A stretch of 64,000 bases of DNA. Origin: Cordylochernes scorpioides (taxonomy: Eukaryota). This document shows positions 7,815 to 63,682 of this stretch, in pieces. Location of the stretch: contig CP092864.1 in the NCBI GenBank assembly GCA_030710605.1, forward strand, positions 139,359,418 to 139,423,417, read 5' to 3'. The notes under the pieces are model-generated. The model was given only the letters and a program-made list of their open reading frames with translations. It did no database searches and was not told the DNA's origin. The position numbers were made by a program, and so were the translations under genes. The stretch's first letter is position 1. Each line of letters begins with the position of its first letter.

Positions 7815-7907
7815 ATGTTCCAGAAACTGGCTCCCAGGAGTGAGGAAGATAGCTGCAGAGTCCAGATCTACACGGATAGTCCGAGGTTGGAGGAATTCTT
7901 CACGGAG
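7815..7907 (+). CDS. STX1: syntaxin-1-like t-SNARE, first coding exon (N-terminus 'MFQKLAPRSEEDSCRVQIYTDSPRLEEFFTE')
   Basis: ATG at 7815. The exon ends ...acg gag|gtaagt (donor GT at 7908). 'RLEEFFTE' aligns with the conserved syntaxin-1 'RDRFMDEFFEQ' that precedes the Habc helix. The phase-0 end joins the next exon in frame. The 5' boundary is uncertain: an in-frame ATG also exists at 7758. Confidence 0.5.
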
Positions 7908-8340
7908 GTAAGTCCCAACCTCCAGGAATGCCCATAATATGAGGAGTTACCATTATGGTTGAACACTAGGACACACAAGGGACATCTTAGAAACATATGG
8001 CCTCCCTGACATTTCTGTCCATAAGTCTGCCCTCACAGAGAAATTTGTTGATCCAAAATGCTGAACTTGTTTGAAGTCTCTCCCATACTTTCCAATAATA
8101 ACATTTTTTTAAAATAAAAAAGTCATTAAGAGCTGAAGTTTGAAAAAGGAAGGAACTCTATGAATAAAACTGACACCTAGAAAATCTTTAAGACTCTAAG
8201 CTTTTTCTACAGGCTAAATAGCTCGGCTATTTCAGATTTAAAAAGTTTTCTAATATGGAATGTCATCATCTTCCTTCTTGGACAAGTTAATTTTCACATC
8301 TACCTGTTTAAGGCCCAACATTTCTTTAGCTTATTTAAAT

Positions 8341-8444
8341 ATACAGTAGAACACCTCTTTGTAAAGGAAAACACCTAGTTGCTGGGCCAAAGTGTCCTTT
8401 AGGGTGAGGTGTGCTCCAATGGAAAAGTTTCTTTTTAGTAAAAA
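8341..8444. mobile_element. MITE-2 left half, a duplicate of 8848-8951
   Basis: 104 bp identical to the start of the full copy downstream. The two are separated by the Helitron-like element. Confidence 0.6.
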
Positions 8445-8850
8445 CTAGCCGAATGACCCTGGCAACGCCCGTGTTTTACCCGATTGATTGTTTTGATTCA
8501 AATACTATTTGTTACAATTATAAATTGGCGCCTTAAATAAATGCATATATTAGTTAATAACTATAGCCTATGTGCTTTATCTGTCTATGTACTGTTGGCT
8601 TCCGTAGGCGTCTCTTACTGGGAAAAAGAAAGAGAGGATTCCATTTAGTTATTAACTAATATATGCATTTTTATTTAAGGAGCGACCTGCTCCAACACAA
8701 TAGTTACAAAAACCAAAAAGCGAGTGGGGGGGGGGCAAAGGTGGCGTGATCGTAGCCAACCAATAGGAGAGCGCCATTCCAGAAAAAAAGCAAACGGTGA
8801 CAGAGATGAAGAATTAAGAATGCATGACGCTCGTAACTGTATATAGAATA
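8445..8850 (-). mobile_element. Helitron-like element, family X (~410 bp)
   Basis: It begins CTAGccgaatgaccctggcaacgcccgtgttttacccgatt (reverse complement: hairpin, ~8 nt, CTAG|T). It ends …caaacggtgacagagatgaa…gacgctcgtaactgtatatagaata. Near-identical copies are at 10062-10470, 38440-38865 and 27764-28165. Confidence 0.6.
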
Positions 8851-9036
8851 CAGTAGAACACCTCTTTGTAAAGGAAAACACCTAGTTGCTGGGCCAAAGT
8901 GTCCTTTAGGGTGAGGTGTGCTCCAATGGAAAAGTTTCTTTTTAGTAAAAATGGTCATTTGGGTGATATGAAAACTGTTCTTTGTAGAGAAATGTCTGAT
9001 GAAAGTCTCTTCCTCTCATGGAGGATTTTCTACTGT
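8848..9036. mobile_element. MITE-2 full copy
   Basis: atacagtagaacacctctttgtaaaggaaaacacctagttgctgggcc… through …catggaggattttctactgtat. Confidence 0.7.
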
Positions 9037-9828
9037 ATCATAAAATAGTGTTCAAATGCTCTCAAGAGCCCCTTAGACTACAGTAGGTTCCCAAACACCT
9101 TCAACTTCACATCTATTTTATAATGCCCCCCCCCCCCCCCAACAAAGTCTTCTATAAGAAGAACTAATCCCCTCTAAAAGTTTTCATTGCCCACTGGAAG
9201 GTTGAACTTACCGCCCACTTTGAGATAATTCCTATCTTTTCTTGTTTCTTGGAAAGTTCCCCTCCAAGAGTTGGTTTACTACCAGACCCACAGTCCACTC
9301 CTGACACTTGGTGGGTTTGCCAGTCTGCAGGTTTAACAGGAGCCACCAAAAGGGATTTATTACAAATATCTATCTTACAGTAATTTGTGGATTTACCCTA
9401 GAATTTGATATGCTTTGGTTAATGCCTCTCCTTTTACCCCACTGAACCGAGAGACTAAAAATGCTCACTAATCTTGGAAGTTGTCATTCTTTGGAAGATC
9501 ACAACTGCATGTATATATCTTACAAACTCTTTATTTTCCTTCAATTTGTTTTCTAAGCAATCTCTGTAAAGAACACTTGGCTTATGACTTGGCATTATCT
9601 AAGTTATCCCAATTTCATACATGCTCTGCAGCTTCTCACATTCAAGTCTAGCAGCTTTAACAACACCTAGCTATGAGAATGATGTAAAACTGATCTGTAT
9701 CAGTGAAATAGAAAATGTGAATTGACAGAAGTGGAGTACTAGCATTAAAACACATTGAAACTAATGCCATATATCAACCATTATCTGAACTACACTCATG
9801 GACAATACATAAAGAAGTTGTACCTTGA

Positions 9829-10058
9829 TTAGGCACAATTTGGATTATAGATTATAAACACAAGGTAATAAGACCAAATCCAAATAAATAAATAGTGTGT
9901 GACGTTTCGGTAACAGCGTTGTTACCATCTTCAGACAAAAGTACTGAATAAGAAAATTTTACCACAGCATGTGGCTGAAAATGGTAACAACGCTGTTACC
10001 AAAACGTCAAACACTATTTATTTATTTGGATTTGGTCTTATTACTTTGTGTTTATAAT
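9829..10058. mobile_element. MITE-1 full copy
   Basis: Both arms are near-perfect. It abuts the Helitron-like element at 10062. Confidence 0.75.
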
Positions 10059-10061
10059 CTA

Positions 10062-10470
10062 CTAGCCGAATGACCCGGGCAACGCCCGTGTTTTACCCGA
10101 TTGAGTGTTTTTATTCAAATACTATTTGTTACAATTATAAATTGGCGCCTTTTATAAATGCATATGTTAGTTAATAACTATAGCCTATGTGCTTTATCTG
10201 TCTATGTACTGTTGGCTTCCGTAGGCATCTCTTAGTGGGGAAAAAGAAAGAGAGGATTCCATTTAGTTATTAACTAATATATGCATTTATTTAAGGGGCG
10301 ACCCGCTCCAACACAATAGTTACAAAACGAAATAGCGAGTGGGGGGGGGCAAAGGTGGCGTGATCGTAGCCAACCAATAGGAAAGCGCCATTCCAAAAAA
10401 AAAGCAAATGGTGACAGAGATGAAAAATTATTAAAAACGCATGACGCTCGTAACTGTATATAGAATAATC
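10062..10470 (-). mobile_element. Helitron-like element, family X
   Basis: Same termini and body as 8445-8850. CTAG at 10062-10065 is preceded by T on the complementary strand. Confidence 0.6.
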
Positions 10471-10919: not shown

Positions 10920-13339
10920 CCCTTAAGCGGTCGCAATGGGTAAAAATTACCCAGAAGGAACTTTTCGAAAATATTTCTATATTAAAAAATATATATATTT
11001 AAAATATATTCTCAGTACCTTTCTAAATCTATCTAAAGATTATTATAATAAACCTATAATTTTAATTTTATGACATATATTCATTTTATTAGCATGTTTG
11101 GGTCAATTTTACCCAGTGCGACCTTTTGAGTTCTCATCATTGGGTAATTTTTACCCAGCGCGACCTTTTAACGCTTTTGGTTTTGGTTTGCGTAATTAAG
11201 TTTCGAGTTACTTTCTGGCTTCTTGTTGTTTGGTTTTGCTGCCCCAAGTGCAATAATACAATCTATTCTTCCAACAATAAGGTAGGATTTATATTTTATT
11301 TCCTCTTTTTACATTATTTTACATAAAATGCTTTCAAATGCTGATTTTCTCCGTGATTATAATAATATTCCAAATCCCGATGATGAGGAATCAGAAACTG
11401 ATGATCATATAGAAGAGAGGAATTGGAGTACAGACACTGAACAGTATACATTATCAGAAGAAGAAAACAATGAGGATCCAAGCTTCAATTACTATATAGG
11501 AAAGGACCAAAAGACTAAATGGAAGAAAGCTCTTCCCCCAAAAAATGTTCGAACTCGCAGTGAAAATATTATCACCCATCTACCAGGGGTAAAGGGTGAA
11601 GCAAAAAATGCTAAATCGATATTAGATTGTTGGAATCTCTTTATAAATGACAATATACTTGAATGCATAGTTACAAATACTAATATTTACATTAGGAATA
11701 TTCAGCAGAACTATAGCAGAGAAAGAGATGCTAATTTGACAAACCTACAGGAAATTAAAGCTTTATTGGGAATTATTTACTTTCTTGGGGTCATGAAAGC
11801 GAATAAATTGAATGGGCAAGAGATAGTACTGGATTTGAATTGTGTAGAATAGCTATGTCTGAAAACAGATTCCGATTTCTTCTCAGAGTAATTCGTTTTG
11901 ATGACAAAGCTAAAAGAAATGAAAGACTTCGTCAAGATGAATTAGCAGCTGTGAGATTGATTCTTGATACTTTTGTAAAAAATTGCCAAAAGCATTATTC
12001 TCCTTCGGAATATATAACGGTGGATGAAAAGCTTGACGCTTTCAGAGGGAAATGCAATTTCAGGCAGTATATTCCGAGTAAACACAATAAATATGGAATA
12101 AAATTATTTGCTCTCGTGGATTCAAAAATGTTTTATACTTGTAACTTGGAGATTTATTCAGGAAAAAACCCTGAAGGTCCTTACAATGTCAGCAACAGTC
12201 CAAGTGACGTTGTGGAACGATTGTGTGAGCCAATCAAGGGAACTGGCCGCAATGTAACAATGGATAACTGGTTCACCAGTTATTCTTTAGCTCTAAAACC
12301 TTTACAACAATTTTGACTAACAATTGTTGGTACCTTAAAAAGAAATAAAAAGGAAATCCCCTCAGAGTTTGTCATCAGCAGAGGTAGAAATGTACACACT
12401 AGTGTTTTTGGCTTTCAAAGTGAAATGACACTTCTTTCATACAAGCCTAAAGAGAATAAAGTTGTACTTATGCTTTCAACTCTGCACCACGATGCAAATA
12501 TAGATGATTCAACGGGAGAATTGAAAAAGCCAGAGATGATAATGTTTTATAATATGACAAAGGGTGGTGTAGATATGATGGACGAAATGACAGCTACATA
12601 TAACTGTGCTAGAAATTCAAGAAGATGACCCATGGTTATTTTTTATTCACTTTTAAATATTGGGGCAATAAATTCCCAGATAATTCATTTTGCAAATGGC
12701 AACGCATCAAAGGTTAAATCAAGACGTCATTTTTTAAAAACCTTATCCTTAGATCTTATTGAAGTGATGGTCAAAGTTCGCACAGTAAACGGAAGAATAC
12801 CATGTGAAATAAAGGAAAAGGCATCCGATATTTCTAATTTGTTAGAGCCTGGTCCATCTAAAAAGCCAAAAATAGGAAAAAGACATCGATGCAAGAAATG
12901 CCAGAAAGAAAAAAAGGACAAAAACTATTCAACATTGCCAGTACTGTTTTGCTTTTTTGTGTAAGGAACACTCTGTAATAATTTGTCAAGAATGTCATAA
13001 AGGACGAAACAAGTCCTAATTTCTATGAAAGGAAGTGATAACTTTCATACAAATTTATATTTTATAACCTATCTTCAATATATATTTTTATTTTCATAAA
13101 ATAGTCGAATATATCATAAATATTTGATATTTTGATTTGTTATTAATAAAATAAATAAAATATGATTTTTATATCTCAAAATTTTATGTAAAGTTATTTA
13201 ATAGACAAATCATTATTCTAACATAGAAAACAATAAAAATATTGAAAAGAATATTTGATTTATTTAGGTTTTTAAAAGTGGGTAAATTTTACCCACCGCG
13301 ACCTTTCAAGGTATAAAAGAGGGCGCGACCGCTGCCGGG
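10920..13339 (+). mobile_element. piggyBac-superfamily DNA transposon (family 1), near full length but decayed
   Basis: Flanked by TTAA (10916-10919 and 13340-13343). Termini are cccttaagcggtcgc… and …gcgaccgctgccggg (TIR ccc..agcggtcgc). Subterminal repeats 'gggtaaa(a)ttttacccag.gcgacctttt' occur at 10940, 11100-11170 and 13275. Confidence 0.8.
11328..13018 (+). pseudogene. piggyBac transposase (DDD domain plus C-terminal Cys-rich domain), broken into 4 ORFs
   Basis: Peptides 'FRFLLRVIRFDD', 'VDEKLDAFRGKCNFRQYIPSKHNKYGIKLFALVD', 'NVTMDNWFTS', 'MFYNMTKGGVDMMD', and the C-terminal 'RCKKCQKEKKDK…CQYCFAFLCKEHSVIICQECHKG' CRD. The ORFs sit in different frames. Confidence 0.85.
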
Positions 13340-13365
13340 TTAAAGAATCATACGTGTCGATAAGG

Positions 13366-13700
13366 CACAATTTGGATTATAGATTATAAACACAAGGTAA
13401 TAAGACCTAATACAAATAAATAAATAGTGTGTGACGTTTCGGTAACAGCGTTGTTACCATCTTCAGACAAAAGTACTGAATCATATATATCAGAAATGGA
13501 AATTTGCACATCACATACTTTGAGGACTATTAGAAGATCATCTTTTGACCATTTTCTATGACTGTCCTAACTCTACACAGAAGTGAGATTGTTTGATTCA
13601 GTACTTTTGTACTAAGATGGTAACAACGCTGTTACCGAAACGTCACACACTATTTATTTATTTGGATTTAGGTCTTATTACCTTGTGTTTATAATCATAC
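13366..13700. mobile_element. MITE-1 full copy with a ~120-bp internal insert shared with 18445-18545
   Basis: Both arms are intact. The internal 'atcagaaatggaaatttgcacatcacatactttgaggactattag…' also occurs at 18448. Confidence 0.7.
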
Positions 13701-14079: not shown

Positions 14080-14285
14080 TTTGGATTATAGATTATAATA
14101 AAAGAAAATAAGACCTAATCCAAATAATTTATTAGTGTGTGACGTTTCAGCAACAACATTGTCACCATCATCAGACAAAAGAATAAATGTTGAATAAAAT
14201 TTGTCTGATGATGGTGACAATGTTGTTGCCGAAACGTCACACACTAATAAATTATTTGGATTAGGTCTTATTTTCTATTATTATT
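14080..14285. mobile_element. MITE-1 (divergent subfamily 'taataagacctaatccaaataatttattagtgtgtgacgtttc.gcaacaa.attgtcaccatcatcagacaaaagaat')
   Basis: Perfect foldback with both arms. Confidence 0.7.
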
Positions 14286-15668: not shown

Positions 15669-16964
15669 CCCGTAATTACTGGCGTTCGGCTTGAAAGGCC
15701 GTGTGAAAATTTAAAATGTTTGCGAAATTTTCAAAATGCAATATTTTTCATCAAAATTTTAGGTAGCTTAATAAAATGCATTTATTTGAAGAACTTTTCA
15801 TTTTAAGAGAAATCTCTTTTGTATACCCCGAGTTATTAAATCAAACGGCCTTTAAAGCCGAGCGCCAGTAATTACGTCACTGGGAATTTTAGCGCTCCTA
15901 TTATTGGCCGTTTCACTTTTGGTTTTATAGACGTTCAAACGCAACAAATAAGTTGAGCATTCGTTTTTTTATTACTCTTGCTTCAATTATATGCATTCTA
16001 AATTGTGTTTTGTGATTGTAATTTTGTATAATATAATAGAAGTTCGGTTCCACTTTTGGTTTTTCAAAAAACAAAAATTTGGTATCCTATGTCTCTAAAA
16101 TTGGAAAATCTGTTATATTACTCTCCACAATGCATTTGACCACAACAATTGATCAAGAAACTGCTGAACAATAAAAGCCCGAGATAATCACATTTTATAA
16201 TATGACCAAAGGTGGTGTAGATGTAGTTGATCAGACATGTATTCAGTTGGAAGAAGAACCAAAAGATGGCCTCTGTGTTTATTTTTCAACTTTTTGGATG
16301 TGGTTGCAATAAATTTAGCAGTAATTTATAAGGCTGTCAACCAAGACGGTGGAATGGCTCGAAAAGATTTTATAAAGCAGCTTGCTCTACAACTAATGAA
16401 AGATGCCTTGAATATGAGAAATCAAGCCAAATATTTGTCAAGAGATCTGCAAGTATTAATTCAGAAGCATGCTGGAACTTCATCACTTGAGGTAGGCAAA
16501 TATTTATTTGATATTCAAAGGAAATATCAATAATATGTGTTATCTAGGAATCCACAAGCGGCAGTCCTTGGTCCAAAAAAACGCAAAAGATGCTACCCAT
16601 GTAAAAAAGATCGTCGAACTCAAATGCAATTCAAAAAATGCAAAGAACCAATCTGCAAAGATCATTCTATTGAAATATGCTTGAATTGTGCATCTAATCT
16701 TGAATAAAATATTTTAGATAGAATTTTTTAGAATATATATAGAATATTTTAGATAGAAAGAGTTTCTTGTACATTTTCATTTAATTTTGTTTAGAGCTCT
16801 GTTTATTTGAAAAAAACAAAATATTTATTCTTTGTAAATTATGTGTATACGTTTAATTTCTTTTTATTTTATAAATAACATGGTTTATTATTGATTTTAA
16901 AAGACGGCCTGAGAGGCCGAACGCCAGTAATTGTGTAAGGAAAATAGGCGCCAGTAACTAAGGG
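15669..16964 (+). mobile_element. piggyBac-superfamily element (family 2), internally deleted non-autonomous copy
   Basis: TTAA at 15665-15668 and 16965-16968. The TIRs are cccgtaattactggcg… and …cgccagtaactaaggg. A subterminal inverted copy 'gccgagcgccagtaattacg' is at about 15860. Confidence 0.7.
16190..16682 (+). pseudogene. piggyBac transposase C-terminal fragment (…FYNMTKGGVDVVDQ… plus Cys-rich domain CYPCKKDRRTQMQFKKCKEPICKDHSIEICLNCASNLE)
   Basis: It carries a C-terminal cysteine-rich domain and a …NMTKGGVD… motif of the same kind as family 1's transposase, but at clearly different nucleotide sequence. It has a stop codon and is missing the N-terminal two-thirds. Confidence 0.75.
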
Positions 16965-18442: not shown

Positions 18443-18595
18443 ATCAGAAATGGAAATTTGCACATCACATACTTTGAGGACTATTAGGTGATCATCTTTT
18501 GACCATTTTCTATGACTGTCCTAACTTTACACAGAAGTGAGATAGTTCCCAGATCTAAATGATTTACTCTCTTATACCAACCACTTTGTTTATAT

Positions 18596-18951
18596 CTTCT
18601 TCTTCTTTCTTATCTCCACTCAATCATATCAGGTTATCAAGCTTGTAGAGCTTGAAACTTGACAACCACCATGACTGGGTGAAGTAGAATGCGTCTGCCT
18701 TTGTCATTAAGACTGGGAGCACTACTCAGTGGCAGGCCGACTTAGCTCCAAAAGAAATGGCCGCCTCTGACATGAGGAACAGACGCCATGTGCAGCCGCT
18801 CCTAACATGGAGTACAAACGCTGCTCATCCTGTATCCCTGGATTAGGAGCCCTTACAGGGTACTATCAGCCGGACCAGCTGAACCCAGGTTTTTTAGTGA
18901 GCTTGTTACTGCTCCCCCTCCTCCTTTTTCATCCGGGCTTGGGACCGGCAA
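18596..18951 (-). mobile_element. SINE-1 full copy
   Basis: Same consensus as 25-392. It ends 'ccgggcttgggaccggcaa' at 18951. Confidence 0.7.
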
Positions 18952-19744
18952 GTGTTTATATACATTTTATAAACTGTTGCTTCATAAAGAACAGTATCAA
19001 CAGGAGAATAGACATCCCAGAATAATTCTGTTATACTCCAAATCAAGATTAAATAGCAACCATTTAATAAATCTTTCCCCCCCTTCCCTTCCCGTGCTCA
19101 CTGTTACTTTGCCTGTTGAAAAGTGAGAGCTCAAAAGCTCACGCTGTTTTTGTAAAAAAGAAACATATTGTGTACACTCTCAGATTGGTGCACTATGATG
19201 TTGGTACGTTTAGATTAAAATGGTCTCAAGCAAAGGTGACAATATATATATTTAAAGAGGATCAACTTTGTATACAAAAAGCAAACTAAAACGAATAAAA
19301 ACAACTGGTTTCTTTTTCCCGTAGATTACATAAGGCCTAGCGACGAAGTACGTCCATCTCATCAAGCAAGCTGTGCGCTCTACTCTACAAGCCTCACTAC
19401 CCTACCACGACAACTGCCGGCACAGGCAACATCGCCTTTTATATAGGCAAAAGATAAAACAATAGAAAAATGCAAAATAGCTATTTACATAAAATATAAA
19501 ATACAAATTATCTATGTTCCTAACAAAACATATTGTGTAAAGTTTTTTAAAATATTTTATACATGTAAATCTGTAAATATTTAATGCTAAGTTTCAGTTT
19601 GTTTGTTATGTTTCCTCTGTAATAGCCACAAATACTTCAATACTGCGTCTTAGAGGATAATAAATTTTAAAAATAATAAATCTTTTGACCCTCCATGTAA
19701 TGGAGAGCTATAGGCCTCTTGGAGAATGAAGGAAGAACCAATAA

Positions 19745-19835: not shown

Positions 19836-19864
19836 AAATCTCATGATAAGGAGATGCCTTTTTA

Positions 19865-20625
19865 AAAATGTATCCACCTAAAACCGGTACAATTTCACAT
19901 TTGTACTATTTTTTCACATTAAAGAAGTGTTGTTCTCAAAGGGAGGTCTGAAATAGGTAATTTTTTTTTGTTGCTTATCCCAAGTACACGTGGTACAGGC
20001 CATGATAATCATGGTGGGTAGAAGTACCTAAACCCAGTACAATTTCACATTTGTACTATTTTTTTCACATTAAAGAAGTGTTGTTCTCAAAGGGAGGTCT
20101 GAAATAGGTAGTTTTTTTTTTGCTTATTCCTAGTACACGTGGTACAGGCCATGATAATCATGGTGGGTAGAAGTACCTAAACCCAGTACAATTTCACAAT
20201 TGTACTATTTTTTTCACATTAAAGAAGTGTTGTTCTCAAAGGGTGGTCTGAAATAGGTAGTTTTTTTTTGCTTATTCCTAGTACACGTGGTACAGGCCAT
20301 GATAATCATGGTGGGTAGAAGTACCTAAACCCAGTGCAATTTCACATTTGTACTATTTTTTTCACATTAAAGAAGTGTTGTTCTCAAAGGGAGGCCTGAA
20401 ATAGGTAGTTTTTTTTTGCTTATTCCTAGTACACGTGGTACAGGCCATGATAATCATGGTGGGTAGAAGTACCTAAACCCAGTACAATTTCACATTTGTA
20501 CTATTTTTTCACATTAAAGAAGTGTTGTTCTCAAAGGGTGGTCTGAAATAGGTAGTTTTTTTTTTGCTTATTCCTAGTACACGTGGTACAGGCCATGATA
20601 ATCATGGTGGGTAGAAGTAGGCGAA
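19865..20625. repeat. Satellite, ~127-bp unit × 6, derived from a SINE-2 3' end plus flanking sequence
   Basis: Each unit contains the reverse complement of 'ctacccaccatgattatcatggcctgtaccacgtgtactagg' and 'gggataagcaaaaaaaa'. Confidence 0.85.
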
Positions 20626-20775
20626 TGCTTTTACTGTAAGTACACCACATGTCTACACATGCGAAAAGCAGTTCAACTTTCACTTACAAATGCGCCAGAG
20701 CCCCATTTGATTACTTGCACTCGCTGGTGGGGTTGGACTTTTGCAAGAATCGGGCCATTGGAGCATTTTTTTTTA
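20560..20775 (-). mobile_element. SINE-2 copy (3' part) abutting the SINE-derived satellite
   Basis: Reverse complement of 'gctccaatggcccgattcttgcaaaagtccaaccccaccagcgagtgcaagtaa… gtagacatgtggtgtac…ctacccaccatgattatcatggcctgtaccacgt'. Confidence 0.6.
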
Positions 20776-21904: not shown

Positions 21905-22232
21905 TTAGAAAAAGGAGGAGGGGGAGCAGTAACAAGCTCACTAAAAAACCTGGGCTCAGCTGGCCCAGCTGATAGTACCCTGTTAGGGCTCCTAATCCAG
22001 GGATACAGGATGAGCAGCATTTGTACTCCATGTTAGGAGCAGCTGCACATAGCGTTTGTTCCTCATGTCAGAAGCGGCCATTTCTTTTGAAGATAAGTCA
22101 GCCTACCACTGAGTAGTGCTCCCATTCTTAATGACAAAGGCAGACGCATTCTACTTCACACAGTCATGATGGTTGTCAAACAAGCTTGATACCCTAATAT
22201 GATTGAGTGGAGATAAGAAAGAAGAAGAAGAG
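21905..22232 (+). mobile_element. SINE-1 copy (+)
   Basis: aaaaaggaggagggggagcagtaacaagctcactaaaaaacctgggctcagctggcc … gattgagtggagataagaaagaagaagaag. Confidence 0.7.
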
Positions 22233-22575: not shown

Positions 22576-22885
22576 ATCTTCTTCTTCTTTCTTATCTCCA
22601 CACTGGGTGAAGTAGAATGCGTCTGCCTTTGTCATTAAGACTGGGAGCACTACTCAGTGGCAGACCGACTTAGCTCCAAAATAAATGGCCGCCTCTGACA
22701 TGAGGAACAGACACCATGTGCAGCCGCTCCTAACATGGAGTACAAACGCTGCTCATCCTGTATTTCTGGATTAGAAGCCTTTACAGGGTAATATCAGCCG
22801 GGCCAGCTGAGCCCAGGTTTTTTAGTGAGCTTGTTACTGCTCCCCCTCCTCCTTTTTCATCCGGGCTTGTGACCGGCAAGGGCGG
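22576..22885 (-). mobile_element. SINE-1 copy with an internal/tail deletion
   Basis: tcttcttctttcttatctccacac|tgggtgaagtagaatgcg… It lacks the 'tcaatcatattagggtatcaag…' segment. Confidence 0.65.
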
Positions 22886-22894
22886 AGTTATGAT

Positions 22895-23120
22895 ACATTA
22901 TGATAAAGCACAATTTGGATTATAGATTAGAAACATAAGGTAACAAAATCACCTCCAAATCAATACATTGTTCATGAGGTTTGGGTAACATTATTGTTAC
23001 CATCTTCAGACAAAATACTGGATTTAGTGAATGAAGAATCATTTAGTACTTTGGTAACAAAGCTGTTACTGAAATGACACACTATTTATTTGGATTTGGT
23101 CATATTTCCATGTGTTTCTG
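22895..23120. mobile_element. MITE-1 copy (diverged)
   Basis: Arms 'gattagaaacataaggtaacaaaatcacctccaaatcaatacattgttcatgaggtttgggtaacattattgttaccatcttcagacaaaatac' and '…ggtaacaaagctgttactgaaatgacacactatttatttggatttggtcatatttccatgtgtttc'. Confidence 0.55.
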
Positions 23121-23194: not shown

Positions 23195-23815
23195 TCTTCT
23201 TTCTCATCTCCACTCAACAATCATATTAGGGTATCAAGCCTTTAGAGCTTGAGAGGTTTGATGGTATCTACTGAGTAGATCTCATCATCAGCCTGGTGAT
23301 CTGAAGATAGAAAATAACAACAAAATCTACTCCACTTGCACAAAATGTAACTTGTCACCTGCAGCTCCAGAACACATTTTGGCTTGCATTGGATGTACCA
23401 AACAGGACCTTTGGGAGAGGCCTCTGCTTATGATCAAACAGCTCGAGGAGCATGAACTCATGGAATTCGTGTAATTTTTACACAAGGGGATAAGAAACAC
23501 AGATCTCATCGAAAGAAATTTGACTTTCATAATGATCGGGTGAAGTAGAATGCATCTGCTTTTGTCAAAAGGACTGGAAGCACTACTCAGTAGCAGGCTG
23601 ACTTAGCTCCAATATGAAATGGCCACCTCTGACATGAGGAACAGATGCCATGTACAGCCGCTCTAACATGGAGTACAGACTCATCCTATATACCTGGATC
23701 AGGAGCCCATACAGGGTACTATCAGCCAGGCCAGCTGAGCCCAGGTTTTTTAGCGAGCTTGTTACTGCTCCCCCTCCTCCTTTTTCATCCGGGCTTGGGA
23801 CAGGCAAAGACGGAA
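23195..23815 (-). mobile_element. SINE-1 copy split by a LINE-a 3' fragment at 23300-23530
   Basis: SINE tail part at 23195-23290, SINE body at 23530-23815, LINE-a coding 3' end between them. Confidence 0.55.
23300..23535 (+). mobile_element. LINE-a 3' end (ORF2 C-terminal CCHC zinc knuckle plus 3' UTR)
   Basis: Translates to 'CTKCNLSPAAPEHILACIGCTKQDLWERPLLMIKQLEEHELMEFV*' (C-x2-C-x9-H-x3-C) and then 'tttttacacaaggggataagaaac'. There are 8 such fragments in the window. Confidence 0.55.
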
Positions 23816-23939
23816 TTAATTATACCTATGAAACAATTTAATAGGGGCTAACTAATATTTTGTTAATGAGAATGGCCTGTGAAGAGAGTCCTGTCATGGT
23901 ATTAAGGAATGTTGCAAGCAAAGAGGGAAGGTAGATTTT

Positions 23940-24253
23940 AACTGTCTTCTTCTTCTTTCTTATCTCCACACTGGGTGAAGTAGAATGCGTCTGCCTTTGT
24001 CATTAAGACTGGGAGCACTACTCAGTGGCAGGCCGACTTAGCTCCAAAAAAAAAATGGCCGCCTCTGACATGAGGAACAGATGCCATGTGCAGCCGCTCC
24101 TAACATGGAGTACAAACGCTGCTCATCCTGTATCCCTGGATCAGGAGCCCTTACAGGGTACTATCAGCCGGGCCAGCTGAACCCAGGTTTTTTTAGTGAG
24201 CTTGTTACTGCTCCCCCTCCTCCTTTTTCATCCGGGCTTGGGACCGGCAAAGG
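23940..24253 (-). mobile_element. SINE-1 copy, short-tail variant
   Basis: Same deletion variant as 22576-22885. Confidence 0.65.
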
Positions 24254-24284
24254 CGAAAGTAGATTTTAACTGTAAGTTTTGCCA

Positions 24285-26143: not shown

Positions 26144-26243
26144 CTTCAAGAGGTCTATGACATCCTGACCAGCCTTTTCATCGACATTGAAGAACTCAAG
26201 AAAGACCATTCCATAATCCTCACTTCACCCTATGACAATAAAG
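26144..26243 (+). CDS. STX1: syntaxin-1-like exon (Habc region: LQEVYDILTSLFIDIEELKKDHSIILTSPYDNK)
   Basis: Acceptor tttgcag|ctt at 26143, donor aaa g|gtaggt at 26244. 'EELKKDHSIILTSPYDNK' aligns with syntaxin-1 'EEVKRKHSAILASPNPDEK'. The exon ends in phase 1, matching the next exon. Confidence 0.7.
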
Positions 26244-26565: not shown

Positions 26566-26756
26566 CATAGTTCACTGCATTTTAAAATAAACATGGGGAT
26601 TATATCAAACATATATAAAATGGACTTATTTTTGTGAATTTTTGGGTGTTTTAGAGCATACTTACTAAAATATCAGGTGTATGTCGTTCAGCATAACCTT
26701 CTAAAGAGATAGCGCAGAGAGAAAGGCACACACAAGAGAATAAATTAATACAAAGT

Positions 26757-27072
26757 CTTCTTCTTCTTCTTTCTTATCTCCACACTGGGTGAAGTAGAAT
26801 GTGTCTGCCTTTGTCATTAAGACTGGGAGCACTACTCAGTGGCAGGCCGACTTAGCTCCAAAAGAAATGGCCGCCTCTGACATGAGGAACAGACGCCATA
26901 TGCAGCTGCTCCTAACATGGAGTACAAACACTGCTCATCCTTTATCCCTGGATTAGGAGCCCTTACAGGGTACTATCAGCCGGGCCAGCTGAGCCCAGGT
27001 TTTTTAGTGAGCTTGTTACTGCTCCCCCTCCTCCTTTTTCATCTGGGCTTGGGACCGGCAAAGGCGGAGTTA
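26757..27072 (-). mobile_element. SINE-1 copy, short-tail variant
   Basis: tcttcttcttctttcttatctccacactgggtgaag… through …gggaccggcaaaggcggagtta. Confidence 0.65.
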
Positions 27073-27763
27073 ATACAAAGTAATAACGCGTCACTATATA
27101 TAACGAATGAAGACATTATTTAAATGTAATTCTACTATCCTAAAAGCTTATATCCATAGTTTGCTTAAATACCATTTCTAAGATTCCACCCTTCAGCGCA
27201 GCATATAAAAGCAAAATGATCCAATACAGTATTGGTGCTCTAAAGAAGCGGTCTGGTAGATTAAAAAAAAAAAAAATTGGCAAAATCACTAGGAGGGTTC
27301 ACCACTGATGAGCCAAGCTCTCCTAATATTTTTCATCGCAGTAAGGACAGTAAAAGTTTGATTTATGTATGAAAAGAAACATTTGCATCTTAATGTCTTC
27401 AAGAGAATAAATGATCATTATAAAGCATCAATGCCACAAAATCTTGATTTTTTAGATGAAAAGTCAAACCCTAGAACAAATACGCCATTGGACATCATGT
27501 TGACATCAGCAGCTGTAGATTCCTCCATTGTACAAGCCGGCCCAACTTGATACAGCAAATGTCTGACAACAACCTCAGGTAGGGAAGTTGAATCAGGAGG
27601 AAGGAGCGTGGAGACAATGGAGGTGTTGGTTGGGTCAGCTCCCCCATACCAATTAAGAATTTCATCACAGAGTTGAAATACTTCCTCCCACATATCATTA
27701 TTTTTGGTGGTGGTGGTGGTCATTGAATCACACTTCTTTCTTCCCCTTCCCCCTTTAAGGAAT

Positions 27764-29372: not shown

Positions 29373-29509
29373 ATTGTGTTGGGAAAAAAATGACGCTTTT
29401 CAATCTCATTCGTCTCTTTTGAGTTATTATATAGAAGTTATTTTGAGAGATGCAGGAAAAGAATCATGGAAGTAATACATTTATTTGGAAGAGCAGATAG
29501 TCTTCTTCT

Positions 29510-39691: not shown

Positions 39692-39766
39692 AGACCGAGG
39701 CCAAGGTGGACGAGCTGATGCAGGACTTCAAGGTCAGGTCAAAGAAGGTGAAGACCAAGTTAAAAG
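39692..39766 (+). CDS. STX1: syntaxin-1-like exon (…TEAKVDELMQDFKVRSKKVKTKLK)
   Basis: Acceptor tgttccag|ag at 39691, donor aaaag|gtgagt at 39767. The peptide aligns with syntaxin-1 '[25 protein letters not shown]'. Phase is consistent with the flanking exons. Confidence 0.75.
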
Positions 39767-43918: not shown

Positions 43919-44165
43919 GCCTTCTTCTTCTTTCTTATCTCCACTCAATCATATTAAGGTATCAAGCTTGTAAAGCTTGAGATTTTTGATGGTGTCTGAT
44001 TTGACAACCATCATGATTGGGTAAAGTAAAATGCGTCTGTCTTTGTCATTAAAACTGGGAGCACTACTCAGTGGCAGGCCGACTTAGCTCCAAAAGAAAT
44101 GCCGCCTCTGACATGAGGAACAGACGCCATGTGCAGCTGCTCCTAACATGGAATACAAACGCTGC
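43919..44165 (-). mobile_element. SINE-1 copy, head truncated
   Basis: Consensus from the tail to '…catggaatacaaacgctgc'. Confidence 0.6.
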
Positions 44166-46427: not shown

Positions 46428-47776
46428 ATACAAGGTGTGTCCAATAAATAATGAGACCGGTCAAAAATAGAAAGCTTCAGCTACACTGCGGTATATCACA
46501 TCACGTTATTGCGCGCGCAGTCGATAAATTGTAAGCTTGTAAAAAGAACGCCTTGCATAACAACTTCTAATTTGTAATGGATAGAAAATTCGAACAACGA
46601 ATTTGTATTAAATTTTGCTACAAAATTGGGAAATCAGCTTCAGAAACTTTAGATTTGTTGAAATTGGCATTTGGAAAGGAAAATGTAAATAAGCCCACCA
46701 CATTTAGATGGTTTTCACGATTTAAAAAAGGAATGGAATCGGTGAAAGATGAGAAGCGTGTTGAACGTCCATTTCTGCACAGGAACCCTGAAAAGGTGAG
46801 CCAAATTTCAAATTTTATAAAAGATAATCCACGAATAGGGTTACGGGACATTGAGGAAGAAACAGGGATATCAAAATCATTAGTTGGATCGATAATTAAA
46901 GAAGACACCTTCAAAATTTATCCCTAAAATGCTCACAATCCAACAAAAGGAGAATCACGTTGAAGTTGCCAAAAAAATGCTTGAAATGGTGGAAGAAAAC
47001 CCTAATTGGAAGGAAAAAGTAATAACTGGAGACGAGACATGGGTTTACGGGTATGACCCGGAAACAAAACGCCAATCCATGGAGTGGAAAGGAAAATATG
47101 AAACAAGAACGAAGAAATCCCGACTTTGCAAGTCAAAAAACAAAGTCTTATTGGTCACGTTCTTTGACATAAAGGGAATTGTGCATTATGAATATCTAAC
47201 AGAGCTCCAACATCGGGTCGCTCGAATCAGCTTCCGCCTTTTTTTAGGCATTACTCGGCCGAGTCCGTTTAAATCAGCCCTGCCAGGCTCCTAGAGGAAG
47301 GTCAAACAATCAATAAGGAGTCTTATTTAAACATTATGAGACGTGTACATGAATCAATTCGTCTGAAAAGAAGTGAAATGTGGAGTTAAAAATTGGATTA
47401 TCCATCATGATAATGCACCACCACACACCGCTACATCTGTACTGACTTATTTGGCTAAACACGGCATCCAAATACAACAACCTCCCTATTCCCCAGACCT
47501 AGCTCCAAATGATTTTTTTCTCTTTCCAAAACTCAAAATGGCTCTAAAAGGAAGGAGATTTGACACTAGAGTCCATCATAGCGGATTCGAAAAAGGTCTT
47601 GAAGAACATCCTGAAAGATGCCTTTTATAAATGTTTTAAATCATGGGAGAAGAGATGGAAATTATGTATAGATGCGGGAGGGGACTATTTTGAAAAATAC
47701 TAATAAAATTTTTTTTATCATTCTATTTTTTCTTTATTTTTGACCAGTCTCATTATTTATTGGACACACCTTGTAT
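46428..47776 (+). mobile_element. Tc1/mariner-superfamily DNA transposon (second family), defective
   Basis: About 40-bp TIRs: tacaaggtgtgtccaataaataatgagaccggtcaaaaata (46429-46469) and its reverse complement (47735-47775). TA is at both junctions. Confidence 0.8.
46577..47630 (+). pseudogene. mariner-like transposase, split over three frames (ORFs 46577-46927, 46929-47294, 47373-47630)
   Basis: Peptides 'ITGDETWV', 'HHDNAPPH', 'PPYSPDLAPNDFFLFPKLK' are typical of the mariner/HTH_48+DDE_3 type. Frameshifts and stops separate the ORFs. Confidence 0.8.
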
Positions 47777-50895: not shown

Positions 50896-50966
50896 GCATC
50901 CGTGGTTCAGTGGTAGAATGCTCGCCTGCCACGCGGGCAATCCGGGTTCGATTCCCGGCCGATGCA
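50896..50966 (+). tRNA. tRNA-Gly (anticodon GCC), near-canonical, embedded in a Helitron-like repeat
   Basis: gcatccgtggttcagtggtagaatgctcgcctGCCacgcgggcaatccgggttcgattcccggccgatgca. It is close to the canonical eukaryotic tRNA-Gly-GCC. The D-arm and T-arm (GGTTCGATTCC) are intact, with one acceptor-stem mismatch (C6:C67). An oligo-T follows immediately. Confidence 0.65.
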
Positions 50967-51975: not shown

Positions 51976-51980
51976 TAAAG

Positions 51981-52322
51981 CCCGGATGAAAAAGGAGGAG
52001 GGGGAGCAGTAACAAGCTCACTAAAAAACCTGGGTTCAGCTGGCCTGGCTGATAGTACCCTGTTAGGGCTCCTAATCCAGGGATACAGGATGAGCAGCGT
52101 TTGTACTCCATGTTAGGAGCGGTTGCACATGGCGTCTGTTCCTCATGTCAGAGGCGGCCATTTCTTTTGGAGCTAAGTCGGCCTGCCACTGAGTAGTGCT
52201 CCCAGTCTTAATGACAAAGGCAGACGCATTCTACTTCACACAGTCATGATGGTTGTCAAACAAGCTTGATGACCTAATATGATTGAGTGGAGATAAGAAA
52301 GAAGAAGAAGAGATTTAATCTT
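51981..52322 (+). mobile_element. SINE-1 full copy (+)
   Basis: It starts immediately after a LINE-a 3' fragment and ends '…gattgagtggagataagaaagaagaagaag'. Confidence 0.7.
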
Positions 52323-53092: not shown

Positions 53093-53099
53093 CTTCATT

Positions 53100-53410
53100 C
53101 TTCTTCTTCTTCTTTCTTATCTCCATTCAATCATATTAGGGTATCTAGCTTGTAAAGCTTGAGACTTTTGATAGTGTCTGCTGACAATCATTAGACTGGG
53201 TGAAGTAGAATGCGTCTGCCTTTGTCATTAAGACTGAGAGCACTACTCAGTGGCAGGCCGACTTAGCTCTAAAATAAATGGCCGCCTCTGACATGAGGAA
53301 CAGACGCCATGTGCAGCCGCTCCTAACATGGAGTACAAACGCTGCTCATCCTGTATCCCTGGATTGGAGCCCTTACAGGGTACTATCAGCAGGGCCAGCT
53401 GAGCCCAGGC
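53100..53410 (-). mobile_element. SINE-1 copy, head truncated
   Basis: Tail 'ttcttcttcttctttcttatctccattcaatcatattagggtatc…', truncated at '…gccagctgagcccagg'. Confidence 0.6.
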
Positions 53411-54560: not shown

Positions 54561-54637
54561 AGATTGAACAAGAAAAGAAGAAGCTGGAGAAAGAGGAATC
54601 CACCAACTCAGCCGTGTACAGGATATACCAGATGCAG
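54561..54637 (+). CDS. STX1: syntaxin-1-like exon (EIEQEKKKLEKEESTNSAVYRIYQMQ)
   Basis: Acceptor ggtgcag|ag at 54560, donor atgcag|gtagct at 54638. The peptide aligns with '[25 protein letters not shown]'. The 1-base carry-over from the previous exon restores the frame. Confidence 0.7.
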
Positions 54638-55890: not shown

Positions 55891-55999
55891 CACATGGCCA
55901 TCCTATACTGGTTCACCCAGGCCATGGTAACTTACAACAAGGTCCAGACTGATTTCCGAGATGCCTGTAAAAGCAGGATCAAACATCATTTGAAAATTA
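55891..55999 (+). CDS. STX1: syntaxin-1-like exon (HMAILYWFTQAMVTYNKVQTDFRDACKSRIKHHLKI)
   Basis: Acceptor tgtgtgcag|cac at 55890, donor att a|gtaagg at 56000. 'F..AMVTYNKVQTDFRDACKSRIKHHLKI' aligns with '[29 protein letters not shown]'. Confidence 0.8.
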
Positions 56000-57958: not shown

Positions 57959-57959
57959 A

Positions 57960-58245
57960 CCCGATTAAATGCTTTTATTCAAATACTATTCGTTACAATT
58001 ATAAATTGGCACCGTGGATGTCATTCTTGTATAATATATAAATGAGTTTTAAAAATTGTAAAAAAAAAAAAAATGCATCGGCCGGGAATCAAACCCGGGC
58101 CGCCCGCGTGGCAGGCGAGCATTCTACCACTGAACCACCAATGGTTATGAGAAATGGCCATATTTGGGTATTTATTCCATTCACAAAAGCAAACGGTGAC
58201 AGAATTGATTACGAAAGAATTGATTATGACGCTGATAACTGTATT
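57960..58245 (-). mobile_element. Helitron-like tRNA-Gly-carrying variant, 3'-truncated (no CTAG or hairpin)
   Basis: It starts 'cccgattaaatgcttttattcaaatactattcgttacaattataaattggcaccgtggatgtcattc…' and is colinear with 35569-35835. It abuts a SINE-2 tail at 57958. Confidence 0.5.
58074..58145 (-). pseudogene. tRNA-Gly(GCC)-like copy inside a Helitron-like element, acceptor stem degenerate
   Basis: Reverse complement is ccattggtggttcagtggtagaatgctcgcctGCCacgcgggcggcccgggtttgattcccggccgatgca. It has an A-run (oligo-T on the - strand) after the 3' end. Confidence 0.55.
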
Positions 58246-58416: not shown

Positions 58417-58490
58417 CCGGCAGACTCACCACAGACGATGAAGTGGAGGAAATGTTGGAATCCGGTAATGCTGAGGTCTTCTCTCAAGGA
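58417..58490 (+). CDS. STX1: syntaxin-1-like exon (TGRLTTDDEVEEMLESGNAEVFSQG)
   Basis: Acceptor tgtgtgccag|cc at 58416, donor caa gga|gtaagt at 58491. The peptide aligns with 'TGRTTTSEELEDMLESGNPAIFASG'. Confidence 0.85.
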
Positions 58491-60145: not shown

Positions 60146-60466
60146 AACTTCCTTAAGTTTTCATTATGTTTTTTTTTTTTTGGCTTAATTTCCGAGTTGA
60201 GTACTTCATTTTTTCTTTTCAGGGAAGAATTTTTCATTAATAAAATCAATTTCTTTATACTTGCAGAATAATTTTAGCATGTCATTGTTTCTTTAAAATA
60301 CCTTCTTTCTTTTTAAAATGGCCTTTTTGAATTTTTAAGCTCTAAATTCACTTTAAAATGATGTTTATTATTTCAAAAGATAGGTGGATGACTCCATTTT
60401 ATTTATTAATCAGGAAAGTGAACAAAAAAATATTGGATACTTTCAACGATGTGTGAAACTCCACCT

Positions 60467-60770
60467 TTGCCGGTCCCAAGCCCGGATGAAAAAGGAGGAG
60501 GGGGGGGCAGTAAAAAAGCTCACTAAAAAAACCTGGGCTCAGCTGGCCCGGCTGATAGTACCCTGTAAGGGCTCCTGATCCAGGTATACAGGATGAACAG
60601 CGTTTGTACTCCGTGTTATGAGCGGCTGCACATGGTGTCTGTTCCTTATGTAAGAGGCAACCATTTCTTTTGGAGCTAAGTTGGCCTTGCCACTGAGTAG
60701 TGCTCCCCATCTTAATGAATAAGGCAGATGCATTCTACTTCACCCAGTGTGGAGATAAGAAAGAAGAGAA
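60467..60770 (+). mobile_element. SINE-1 copy, short-tail variant (+)
   Basis: ttgccggtcccaagcccggatgaaaaaggaggagggggggg… through …cacccagtgtggagataagaaagaagagaac. Confidence 0.65.
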
Positions 60771-61758: not shown

Positions 61759-61952
61759 GTAGATTTTGTTATTATTTTCTATCTTCGATGGGCTGTTCTA
61801 AATCTTGTTAGTGTTTTGATGCTGTCTATTTCTGAATTTCAGAGCTCCTCCTGGGTCCACTTCATTGTACCAGTTGTGCTTATGTGGGATCTTCCAGTTC
61901 TTGTTTATTTTTGTTTTAGCTACTGTCTCTATTTTGCTGGGTGTGGTGGCAG

Positions 61953-62087
61953 ATCGTGATCACCCAGAATGCCAGACAGACCCTGGCAGACATCGAAGCT
62001 CGCCACGAGGACATCACCAAGTTGGAGAAGAGCATCAGGGAACTCCACGAGATGTTTGTGGACTTGGCACTTCTGGTGGAGAATCAG
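61953..62087 (+). CDS. STX1: syntaxin-1-like exon, SNARE motif ([45 protein letters not shown])
   Basis: Acceptor ggtggcag|atc at 61952, donor aat cag|gtagct at 62088. The peptide is near-identical to the conserved syntaxin-1 SNARE helix '[37 protein letters not shown]'. Confidence 0.9.
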
Positions 62088-62339
62088 GTAGCTTACCTCT
62101 GCTCTGCTCTGGCTTCCTTCTAGCCCCTTCTTCTTCTTCTTTTTTTTTAATTAAAATCTAAATTGTTTTTGTATAATGTGTTCTTTCCCAATTCTTACAT
62201 AATTAGTATCATCACTGAATCTTTATTAAACCCTCTCCTCTCATTTGTTGGACTTCAAATGGGTTGGAATGGTTTTTCAATGAAGCTATTGAATCTTAAC
62301 CCAAACTTGACAATCTTGTTATGGAAATACCAAATTGAT

Positions 62340-62400
62340 TATAACTAGAGTAAAATACAATTTAGATTAAAATCACAAGGTAACAAGACTTGAAACATAT
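62340..62400. mobile_element. MITE-1 fragment
   Basis: ctagagtaaaatacaatttagattaaaatcacaaggtaacaagacttgaaac. Confidence 0.35.
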
Positions 62401-62404
62401 ATAA

Positions 62405-62896
62405 GCAATGGATGGATATAATCTATATTTATATAAAAATGAATGTATGTGTGTCTGTCCTTTATGCCTGACCAAACCACTCATTGGAACGCCATGAAAC
62501 TTTGGGAAGTTATTTAGTATAGTACTGGGAAGGTTTCTAGCAAATAAAATTTTTGAAATAACTTTTCGCCTAAAAATAATCAAAATAAATATTCTAATTT
62601 ATCTGTTATAATTCAACAATCTACTCTAAATATTATCATGATTTTGTAATGTAGAAAATTAGGAAAGACAAAATTCAGGATGACACGGCAATTTATTTGA
62701 GACAAGAATAATGATACAATTCCAAGGCAAGATACTATTCCTTTAACTTCCAATTACCGAGGGAACCAATTAATATTGATTTTATTCAACTTATCGAGTA
62801 TTTTTCAAGGGATCGGGAAAAAATGTTCACTTTATCGAGAGATTCGTTAGATAAATCTTTACTCTGGTAAAACCCGGGCGAAGCCGGGTACATCCT
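62405..62896 (+). mobile_element. Helitron-like element, family A, + orientation, 5' part shortened
   Basis: The 5' end is 'atatttatataaaaatgaatgtatgtgtgtctgtcc'. The 3' end is …aaacccgggcgaagccgggtacatcctCTAG|T (62893-62896). Confidence 0.55.
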
Positions 62897-63110
62897 CTAG
62901 TGATCTATAAAAATAAAGGTTGGCTCTCCCATCAAGTAGATGTCAAAACTAGACACCACCTAGTGACTGTCTCTGTAACTAGTGGACTCGAGTCGTTGAC
63001 AAAGCCAGAACACCCTCACTGATATGAGTTCACTAGTTAGTCTAGACAGTCAATAGATGGTGTCTAGGTTTGACATCTACTTTGATGGGAGAGCCAACTT
63101 TTATTCCTAT
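62895..63110. mobile_element. P2-family foldback element
   Basis: Arms are 'aaaggttggctctcccatcaagtagatgtcaaaactagacaccacctagtgactgtc' and its reverse complement. Confidence 0.6.
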
Positions 63111-63571
63111 ATATAATTAATCTGCCAAATACATATTTGACAATGACAATGAAAAGAAACTTTATTGACTATTTAGTCAATGATTACACTCAGCCAAGAG
63201 TCAATAATGGAAATATTTACAATCATCTGGATTCCGTCAGGAGCCCAGAGCCAGCCTGAGTTCAGACAATCCCCTGTGAATCATGGGATGGCAGTCGCGA
63301 ACATGCTCGGTGACAGTGCCGAGAAACTCAGCAAGAGCCAAATACATATTTGGATTTGGTCTTATTATCTTGGGGTTTTAGATCATATTTTAATGTGACC
63401 TATGTTCAAATTTTGATAACCATATTCATTGCAACAAGGATTTGATTAAGTTTTTATTAACCTTTTTGTGTTTTTAAATAGAAGTTTGTCATATTGTGAT
63501 CCATTCCTCTCTTCTTTCTCTCTTCTGAGCATCATTGATGATGAACAAACCAACCAAGTGAGACTGTGTAG

Positions 63572-63682
63572 GGGGAACTGATCAACAACATAGCCAGGAA
63601 TGTATCTACCACTGTGGACTACACTGTCAAAGGCAAGGAAGACATCGTCAAAGCACGGACACTACAGTCCAAGTACCTAAAG
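63572..63682 (+). CDS. STX1: syntaxin-1-like exon (GELINNIARNVSTTVDYTVKGKEDIVKARTLQSKYLK)
   Basis: Acceptor ctgtgtag|ggg at 63571, donor cta aag|gtaact at 63683. The peptide aligns with '[38 protein letters not shown]'. The TM-domain exon must be downstream of the window. Confidence 0.8.

Follow-up and report, generated by a model that had tools for sequence, protein, structure and literature searches.

The closest described relatives of the gene analysed here are canonical syntaxin-1A (STX1A), the divergent syntaxin-1-type paralogues of spiders and vertebrate STX2. In STX1A, residues D231 and E238 belong to the primary interface with synaptotagmin-1, D231 and E234 contact Munc18-1, and the double substitution D231N,R232N destabilises the primed vesicle pool, weakens clamping and priming and unclamps spontaneous release (PMC10957171). 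A whole-genome duplication is common to pseudoscorpions and arachnopulmonates (PMC8136511). Among mobile elements, variants of the twister ribozyme occupy the 5′ end of Schistosoma mansoni Perere-3 retrotransposons, where the target-site duplication (TSD) abuts the cleavage site (PMC8501958). About 22% of known twisters, like the crystallised Osa-1-4 form, have no P3 stem (PMC6154101). We analysed a 64,000-nt stretch of the chernetid pseudoscorpion Cordylochernes scorpioides (contig CP092864.1, positions 139,359,418 to 139,423,417, forward strand; hereafter, the window). Most probably, the window holds exons 2–9 of an intact gene that encodes a rapidly evolving member of the syntaxin-1 family of plasma-membrane Qa-SNAREs, a paralogue of the species’ canonical STX1A. 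Its introns are rich in repeats, including a short interspersed element (SINE)-like family headed by a putative twister.

Eight exons on the forward strand, distributed over 55,868 bp (Table 1), splice into an open 774-nt frame, divisible by three and with zero stop codons, that encodes 258 amino acids. A sequence-only reading of this DNA had proposed a multi-exon syntaxin-1-family gene across about 56 kb, with eight exons that join into a colinear, gap-free syntaxin frame, and our analysis bears out both proposals. By reading the boundaries, we confirmed an AG acceptor and a GT donor at every internal junction (donors in order: gtaagt, gtaggt, gtgagt, gtagct, gtaagg, gtaagt, gtagct and gtaact). 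The recomputed intron lengths (18236, 13448, 14794, 1253, 2417, 3462 and 1484 bp) agree with those of the earlier reading, while its phases (0,1,0,1,0,0,0) have to be corrected to 0,1,1,0,1,0,0. The exons’ share of the gene span is 1.4%.

The encoded protein aligns with the syntaxin-1 family over nearly its whole length. Residues 23–177 match positions 2–157 of the 157-position Pfam Syntaxin profile (PF00804; E=6.8e-31, 107.6 bits, cutoff 26.7), giving the N-terminal three-helix Habc domain of Stx1/2/3-type proteins, and residues 14–260 of rat syntaxin-1A align colinearly with it in the PDB search (E=2.5e-57). We built a Syx1 profile hidden Markov model (HMM) from homologues of 270–320 amino acids and scanned it against every stop-to-stop segment of the six reading frames. 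For each of the profile ranges concerned, the best match was one of the eight exons, in colinear order, and no rival exon rose above noise in the whole window. Alignment of proteins to the window agreed for part of the gene, with tblastn recovering the fifth to eighth visible exons at exactly the coordinates noted before (three homologues: scorpion, spider and shark proteins).

We reconstructed the exact exon structures of two homologous genes for comparison. The coding exons of the divergent Parasteatoda syntaxin (P0015, locus L001) measure 33, 87, 100, 75, 74, 109, 74, 138, 111 and 75 nt, and those of elephant-shark STX2 (P0050, locus L002) measure 30, 75, 100, 75, 71, 109, 74, 138, 111 and 81 nt. 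All seven window introns share their positions and phases with both genes, including the intron that follows the sequence FFxE/Q at the end of the first visible exon, and the only SNARE-exon length difference is a one-codon deletion in the exon at 61953–62087. By size and phase, the visible exons correspond to exons 2–9 of a conserved 10-exon plan. Thus, the exon plan and its phases are shown to be unchanged from the ancestral Stx1/2/3-type gene, and inflation is confined to the introns. The tiny exons had been presented as a special feature of this locus; because their sizes and phases match those of the spider and shark genes, they are of ancestral size.

With exons 2–9 in view, a first exon of 30–33 nt and a last exon of 75–81 nt are therefore missing from the model. 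In homologues, the Munc18-binding N-peptide (MxxDRLxxL) comes from the first of these exons and the transmembrane anchor from the last. The N-terminus had been taken as complete, yet the first visible exon is exon 2 of homologous genes. It lacks an N-peptide (M-x-[KN]-D-R-L/T-x-x-L), and no credible mini-exon for one was found in 1–7805. The frame of this exon is open from 7746, with in-frame ATGs at 7758 and 7815, and homologues point to a candidate 5′ extension (Table 1). The N-peptide exon may sit upstream of the window, as 5′ introns of 13–18 kb would allow, or this copy may have lost it. At the other end, 318 bases remain after the last donor; the transmembrane exon lies 0.9–2.6 kb further downstream in the spider and shark genes, and here it would lie beyond the window end. 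A miniature inverted-repeat transposable element (MITE)-like element with inverted repeats occupies 7455–7734. It precedes the first visible exon by 80 bp and separates it from any promoter or exon further upstream.

A search with scorpion Syx1A recovered a separate, canonical STX1A in C. scorpioides (P0220). Identities were computed over 257 aligned columns for 37 ingroup and two distant outgroup sequences. P0220 is 93% identical to scorpion Syx1A, 87–91% identical to the horseshoe-crab and tick copies and 71% identical to rat STX1A, compared to only 46% identity with the window protein. The window protein itself shares 41–47% identity with each of the 37 ingroup sequences and 31% with the two outgroup sequences, and its best identity to any database protein is 45–55% (searched: about 15 billion proteins in 5.8 billion clusters). 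Because a conserved copy exists in the same species, the window gene is not one-to-one with Drosophila Syx1A or rat STX1A, and its earlier description as the syntaxin-1 orthologue does not hold. From these comparisons, it appears to be a highly divergent Syx1 paralogue. At most, it could count as co-orthologous to Syx1A, and it does not represent the conserved neuronal copy. The case shows that a best match named ‘syntaxin-1A’ can be mistaken for orthology. As a side observation, the public model of P0220 is flawed, with a wrong N-terminus and an 18-aa retained-intron insert beside the zero-layer Q.

In a neighbour-joining tree with 300 bootstraps, P0220 falls among the scorpions on a short branch, and the window protein forms the longest ingroup branch, near the base and without a stable sister. 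At signature sites that separate arthropod from vertebrate Syx1, the window protein carries the arthropod state 5:1. Sites separating chelicerates from mandibulates are split 2:2, spider-divergent states are split 4:4, and states shared with a trombidiform mite paralogue stand at 13:11, where an outgroup also gives 8:7. The 5:1 count hints at a protostome Syx1 origin; the counts give no tie to the divergent paralogues of spiders or mites. Since pseudoscorpions share the arachnopulmonate genome duplication, an origin as an ohnologue from that event is plausible, though unproven. In mites, the Blomia model P0001 (‘Syntaxin-1A, partial’) consists of a canonical copy fused to a second, partial divergent syntaxin; three more over-long ‘Syntaxin-1A, partial’ models (P0198, P0204 and P0208; with P0001, 366–431 aa), whose sequences were not inspected, may be similar. 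Together, these over-long models hint at tandem paralogues in Acariformes.

The window protein has diverged unevenly. Its identity to P0220, exon by exon, is 0.33, 0.33, 0.28, 0.40, 0.44, 0.76, 0.73 and 0.32, and such a contrast (28–44% versus 73–76%) suggests decay that was selective and not uniform. Among the near-invariant columns of the family (n=63), the protein retains 52 and differs in 11. The exons have a GC content of 47.8% and a third-position GC content (GC3) of 67%, compared to 35.7% GC for the whole window. In keeping with a Qa SNARE motif, a glutamine occupies the zero-layer position (Q226), 11 of 16 layers are identical to rat, and from layer –7 to layer +3 the only change is the conservative M219L. 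The Pfam SNARE profile (PF05739) scored 18.8 bits, below its cutoff of 26.8, because the model continues past the window end. Changes also fall in conserved motifs (RIRKTQ to RIYQMQ, IDRIEY to INNIAR and KARR to KYLK); residues 231, 234 and 238 are N, A and S, residues 230–232 read INN, and Y235 is replaced by R. On balance, we consider it likely that the window protein still functions as a Qa-SNARE, with a surface that has been remodelled.

Several observations weigh against an intact, Syx1-derived paralogue. The first and last coding exons lie outside the window, with the full-length open reading frame (ORF) and the transmembrane anchor out of view, and no annotated or transcript-derived protein for the gene was found among about 15 billion proteins, including the Logan transcriptome assemblies. 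Each of the SNARE layers +4 to +7 carries a substitution (in order: A to T, V244T, A to G and T to I), and otherwise invariant residues are altered, including R116Y, K117Q, T118M, R151H, Q152H and R232N. The tree leaves the duplication of origin undecided, its sister varying between all other sequences, an outgroup, the schistosomes and the mite paralogue, and the comparison set was made up without bona fide Syx4-type sequences. Part of this would suit a silent or recently dead duplicate, no longer expressed, whose frame was kept by chance or whose death is recent: the start and transmembrane exons are not visible, the searched collection holds no matching protein, unusual substitutions sit in conserved motifs (RIYQMQ and INNIAR), and layers +4 and +5 carry polar residues. 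However, 258 codons remain open through eight exons with canonical splice sites throughout, divergence is concentrated in some exons while others are 73–76% identical, 52 of the 63 near-invariant columns are retained, and a GC3 of 67% is held within AT-rich surroundings of 36% GC. Long neutral decay to 46% identity would not be expected to leave an open frame, uneven divergence, kept columns and such a GC3, and we therefore consider a dead duplicate quite unlikely.

Two further explanations concern the gene’s place in the family. Pseudoscorpions are known long-branch taxa (PMC8136511), and the window gene could be the species’ sole true syntaxin-1 orthologue, fast-evolving like its lineage; the best database and PDB matches are all syntaxin-1A, and the gene structure is of the Stx1/2/3 type. 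Yet the C. scorpioides STX1A, at 93% identity to the scorpion protein, shows that this lineage’s canonical copy is not fast-evolving, and even rat STX1A is closer to P0220 (71%) than the window protein is to arthropod Syx1A (41–47%), leaving a sole orthologue with very little probability. Identities of 41–47% are also in the range found between different classes of plasma-membrane syntaxins and, together with the position near the base of the tree, count in favour of an orthologue of an older class (Syx4- or Stx11-like) that was not derived from Syx1. Against this, the named matches are syntaxin-1A, syntaxin, syntaxin-2 and UNC-64, with no syntaxin-4 among them; the sixth and seventh visible exons are 73–76% identical to arthropod Syx1A, including a block of the protostome type; and the 5:1 arthropod signature argues for Syx1 ancestry. 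The basal placement fits long-branch attraction, as other lineage-specific divergent copies are also drawn basally. An older syntaxin class thus seems extremely improbable, and a rapidly evolving Syx1 paralogue is the explanation that we carry forward.

If this paralogue acts as a Qa-SNARE, its closed Habc/linker module would gate the SNARE helix, and the helix would zipper at the plasma membrane with partners of the SNAP-25 and VAMP types. It would do so with an altered surface, comprising D231N/R232N, E234A, Y235R, the loss of charge at 238, the change from RIRKTQ to RIYQMQ and an N-terminus with no N-peptide in sight. Since positions 231, 234 and 238 carry N, A and S at synaptotagmin and Munc18 contacts, we infer that its role may lie outside fast, synaptotagmin-clamped neuronal release, for example in constitutive or gland-type exocytosis. 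A broader scenario would join these elements: a pseudoscorpion Syx1 duplicate was freed of neuronal constraint, its Munc18- and synaptotagmin-facing surfaces were remodelled (INN at 230–232, E234A, a changed basic patch next to the membrane and perhaps an N-peptide that was lost), it serves a specialised, non-synaptic secretion (such as that of silk gland, venom gland or spermatophore), and its introns became a landing pad for a twister-headed SINE, of which the three sense-oriented copies have disabled cores. We regard this full combination as speculative and rather unlikely.

The gene’s introns are long and filled with repeats, which is ordinary for a large, repeat-rich arthropod genome. Among the repeats, we found 15 loci of one family (family A; Table 1), whose copies share 85–97% identity with the reference copy. 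Direct repeats of 8–15 bp flank seven copies (for example, ATAATGTATCAT, ACTATCTGCTCT and ACAGTTAAAATCTAC), 5′-truncated copies with TSDs exist, and the copies end in a (GAA)n-like tail. Because TSDs, 5′ truncation and a (GAA)n-like tail are hallmarks of retroposition mediated by long interspersed elements (LINEs), family A is a SINE-like, LINE-mobilised retroposon and not a Helitron. Helitrons leave no TSD, insert between A and T, have 5′-TC and 3′-CTRR ends, and encode Rep/helicase in autonomous copies. Presumably, family A accounts for the approximately 15 ‘Helitron-like’ elements of the sequence-only reading; their number stands, but their class is contradicted by the TSDs, the 5′ truncations and the twister motif. 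The Helitron label was rejected on the 8–15-bp TSDs of seven copies and on the 3′ hairpin (CCGGGCTTGGGACCGG), which is the twister P4 on the opposite strand.

In a permissive Rfam scan, the type-P1 twister model (RF03160) matched 10 family A loci with 28–49 bits and E-values down to 5.8e-8 for the whole window, compared to a gathering score of 67.2. All matches sit at the sense 5′ end of family A, and the core motif is present at 11 loci. The core reads UAA / CUCC-GC / CCG-GUCCCAAGC-CCGG / GGAG-GAGGG, where GUCCCAAGC is the P4 loop and CUUUG replaces the optional P3 stem. The core itself is intact, and the loss of this optional stem explains why the scores stay below the gathering score. In P4, a C-G pair is replaced by U-A in one copy (30739), a compensatory change, and the TSD abuts the U^AA cleavage site, where it supplies the 5′ strand of P1. 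Family A thus appears to carry a putative P3-less type-P1 twister ribozyme. Three of the 11 motif-bearing copies have the same orientation as the syntaxin gene, and the cores of these three are mutated or truncated; such numbers are too small for a conclusion.

Overall, 49% of the window has at least one further copy within the window, and zero exons are repeated. Repeats or transposase remnants cover at least 55% of the gene span; the heavy load of mobile DNA described earlier is therefore real, but only this share, rather than all recognisable intron content, is shown to be repeated or transposon-derived. Repeat families were counted by seed-based matching (single-linkage clustering merged all families into one). 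A Pfam scan of all 155 ORF segments of at least 70 aa identified only two mariners and one piggyBac, with neither a reverse transcriptase nor a Helitron Rep/helicase among these segments. At least two mariners had been placed in the introns; both elements are confirmed, with one of them (5289–6267) upstream of the claimed gene span. Its ORF at 5289–5960 (minus strand) is 94–96% identical to at least six C. scorpioides proteins on different chromosome-sized contigs, compared to at most 88% for the next best matches. The two piggyBacs of the same account were both found in the first intron, one by Pfam and the other by tblastn.

Other repeats carry structured RNA-like motifs. A perfect 108-nt palindrome at 28393–28500, matched on both strands by the mir-629 model (62 bits), is a MITE hairpin; the miRNA-family Rfam matches (28393–28500, 14133–14244 and 9897–10012) were rejected as MITE hairpin artefacts, not miRNAs. 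Three tRNA-Gly(GCC)-like units (35672–35742, minus; 50896–50966, plus; 58074–58144, minus) reach 45–60 bits and exceed the Rfam tRNA cutoff. All three have about 35 bp of common sequence upstream and a poly-T plus ACAATTTTTAAAACTCATTTATAT in the downstream flank; in two of them, the shared sequence continues for more than 100 bp on each side. They represent copies of a dispersed repeat in which a tRNA-like unit is embedded, and their acceptor stems are slightly degenerate. A single minimal hammerhead-like motif lies at 37230–37295 on the plus strand (CCACG-CUGACGAG-CGCCAACAGCG-CGAAAC-GCGUU-CGUGG), in which a palindromic ACGCGU takes the position of helix III; the Rfam HH9 model matches it with 28 bits, compared to a gathering score of 52, and with E=0.008 for the whole window, and we take it to resemble the dimeric hammerheads of Penelope-like elements. 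Short tandem arrays occur at 682–1270 (three units of about 195 bp), 41640–42329, 62420–63114, 19846–20774 and 31538–32253. All are members of dispersed repeat families and resemble satellite-like stretches inside transposable elements; two of them lie in introns of the gene.

Table 1. Syntaxin exons and mobile-element features of the window, with positions counted from its first base
Feature	Position	Strand	Length (nt)	Remarks
Candidate 5′ extension of first visible exon	7806..7814	+		Acceptor tctttccacttccaag/GTC at 7805/7806, phase 0; would add VHL; modelled on the 30–33-nt N-peptide exon and phase-0 intron that precede this exon in homologues
First visible exon (exon 1 of the sequence-only reading; exon 2 of the family plan)	7815..7907	+	93	Encodes MFQKLAPRSEEDSCRVQIYTDSPRLEEFFTE; donor GAG/gtaagt; weak HMM match, 4.8 bits
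Habc helix a exon	26144..26243	+	100	11.8 bits; spider and shark also 100 nt
Habc helix b exon	39692..39766	+	75	13.7 bits; spider and shark also 75 nt
Variable Hb-Hc linker exon	54561..54637	+	77	Ends in RIYQMQ; 6.1 bits; spider 74 nt, shark 71 nt, all 2 mod 3
Habc helix c exon	55891..55999	+	109	34.4 bits; tblastn; spider and shark also 109 nt
Linker exon with EEMLESGN	58417..58490	+	74	30.0 bits; tblastn; 76% identity to C. scorpioides STX1A
SNARE motif, N-terminal half, to zero-layer Q	61953..62087	+	135	78.9 bits; tblastn; spider and shark 138 nt
Last visible exon	63572..63682	+	111	26.9 bits; tblastn; ends in QSKYLK; donor AAG/gtaact
Family A reference copy	26754..27077	-	~320	Putative twister motif at sense 5′ end, (GAA)n-like tail, TSD ACTTTGTATTAA
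Family A loci (n=15)	104-388, 18595-18951, 21908-22231, 22577-22897, 23538-23820, 23945-24255, 26754-27077, 29499-29873, 30762-31111, 34152-34370, 37827-38081, 43921-44165, 51978-52311, 53099-53409, 60457-60767			
Putative twister motif sites	27000-27094, 22818-22912, 29801-29895, 23746-23840, 24189-24283, 18890-18984, 38009-38103, 319-413	-		
Putative twister motif sites	30739-30833, 34119-34213, 60434-60528	+		
Mariner (Mos1-type) transposase remnant, upstream of gene	5289..6267	-		Frameshifted; Pfam Transposase_1 and HTH_48
Second mariner-type transposase remnant, third intron	46631..47694	+		Different family; Pfam HTH_48 and Transposase_1
PiggyBac transposase remnant, first intron	11093..12961	+		Frameshifts; Pfam DDE_Tnp_1_7, E=1.9e-60
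Second piggyBac remnant, first intron	16049..16623	+		C-terminal part only; tblastn with first piggyBac, 53% over 62 aa, E=7e-18
Palindromic MITE family, reference copy	13356..13698	both	150–340 (family)	Long terminal inverted repeats; ~22 loci in window, with matches on both strands per locus

Compared to Perere-3, family A has a nearly identical twister core and a TSD that adjoins U^AA in the same way. Unlike in Perere-3, the motif heads a non-coding, SINE-like element of about 320 nt in an arachnid, and it lacks P3, like the basic Osa-1-4 form. Family A would thus take the Perere-3 arrangement beyond Schistosoma, into an arachnid genome and a non-coding element, as a new instance of a recently described arrangement. 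Its partner LINE would be expected to belong to the RTE/Perere-3 type.

The syntaxin family itself is well known, and the window adds an apparently unannotated, unusually divergent second Syx1-type gene from an arachnid lineage with a documented genome duplication. Like canonical syntaxin-1A (rat, arthropod and P0220), it has colinear Habc, linker and SNARE regions and equal intron positions, and it conserves Q226, layers –7 to +3, F34 and the LE linker motif (V/E in the window protein). It departs from that protein in its 41–47% identity, where canonical chelicerate copies are 83–93% identical to P0220, and in D231N, R232N, E234A, Y235R, R116Y, K117Q, T118M, the change from KARR to KYLK and an N-peptide that is not seen. 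Its D231N/R232N state has already been examined experimentally in STX1A, and the gene would offer a natural experiment on which syntaxin-1 surfaces may change once a canonical copy covers synaptic release.

The divergent spider paralogues (Parasteatoda P0015/L001, Stegodyphus P0014 and Uloborus P0016) present the same situation: arachnids that share the genome duplication have a second, divergent Syx1-type gene in addition to the canonical one. They have an identical 10-exon plan and share the state MFVDxALLVENQGELI with the window protein. However, the spider copies remain 61–64% identical to canonical syntaxin-1 and keep the N-peptide, D231/R232/E234 and the transmembrane anchor, whereas the window protein has about 45–46% identity to these copies and branches separately in the tree; at 16.5 kb, the spider gene is also shorter than the window gene, with its span of about 56 kb. 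Vertebrate STX2 (elephant-shark P0050, L002) shares the exon plan, the phases and INN at 230–232, but its origin lies in a duplication specific to vertebrates, and its identity to the window protein is 41%. The resemblance between the window protein and STX2 at positions 231 and 232 is convergent.

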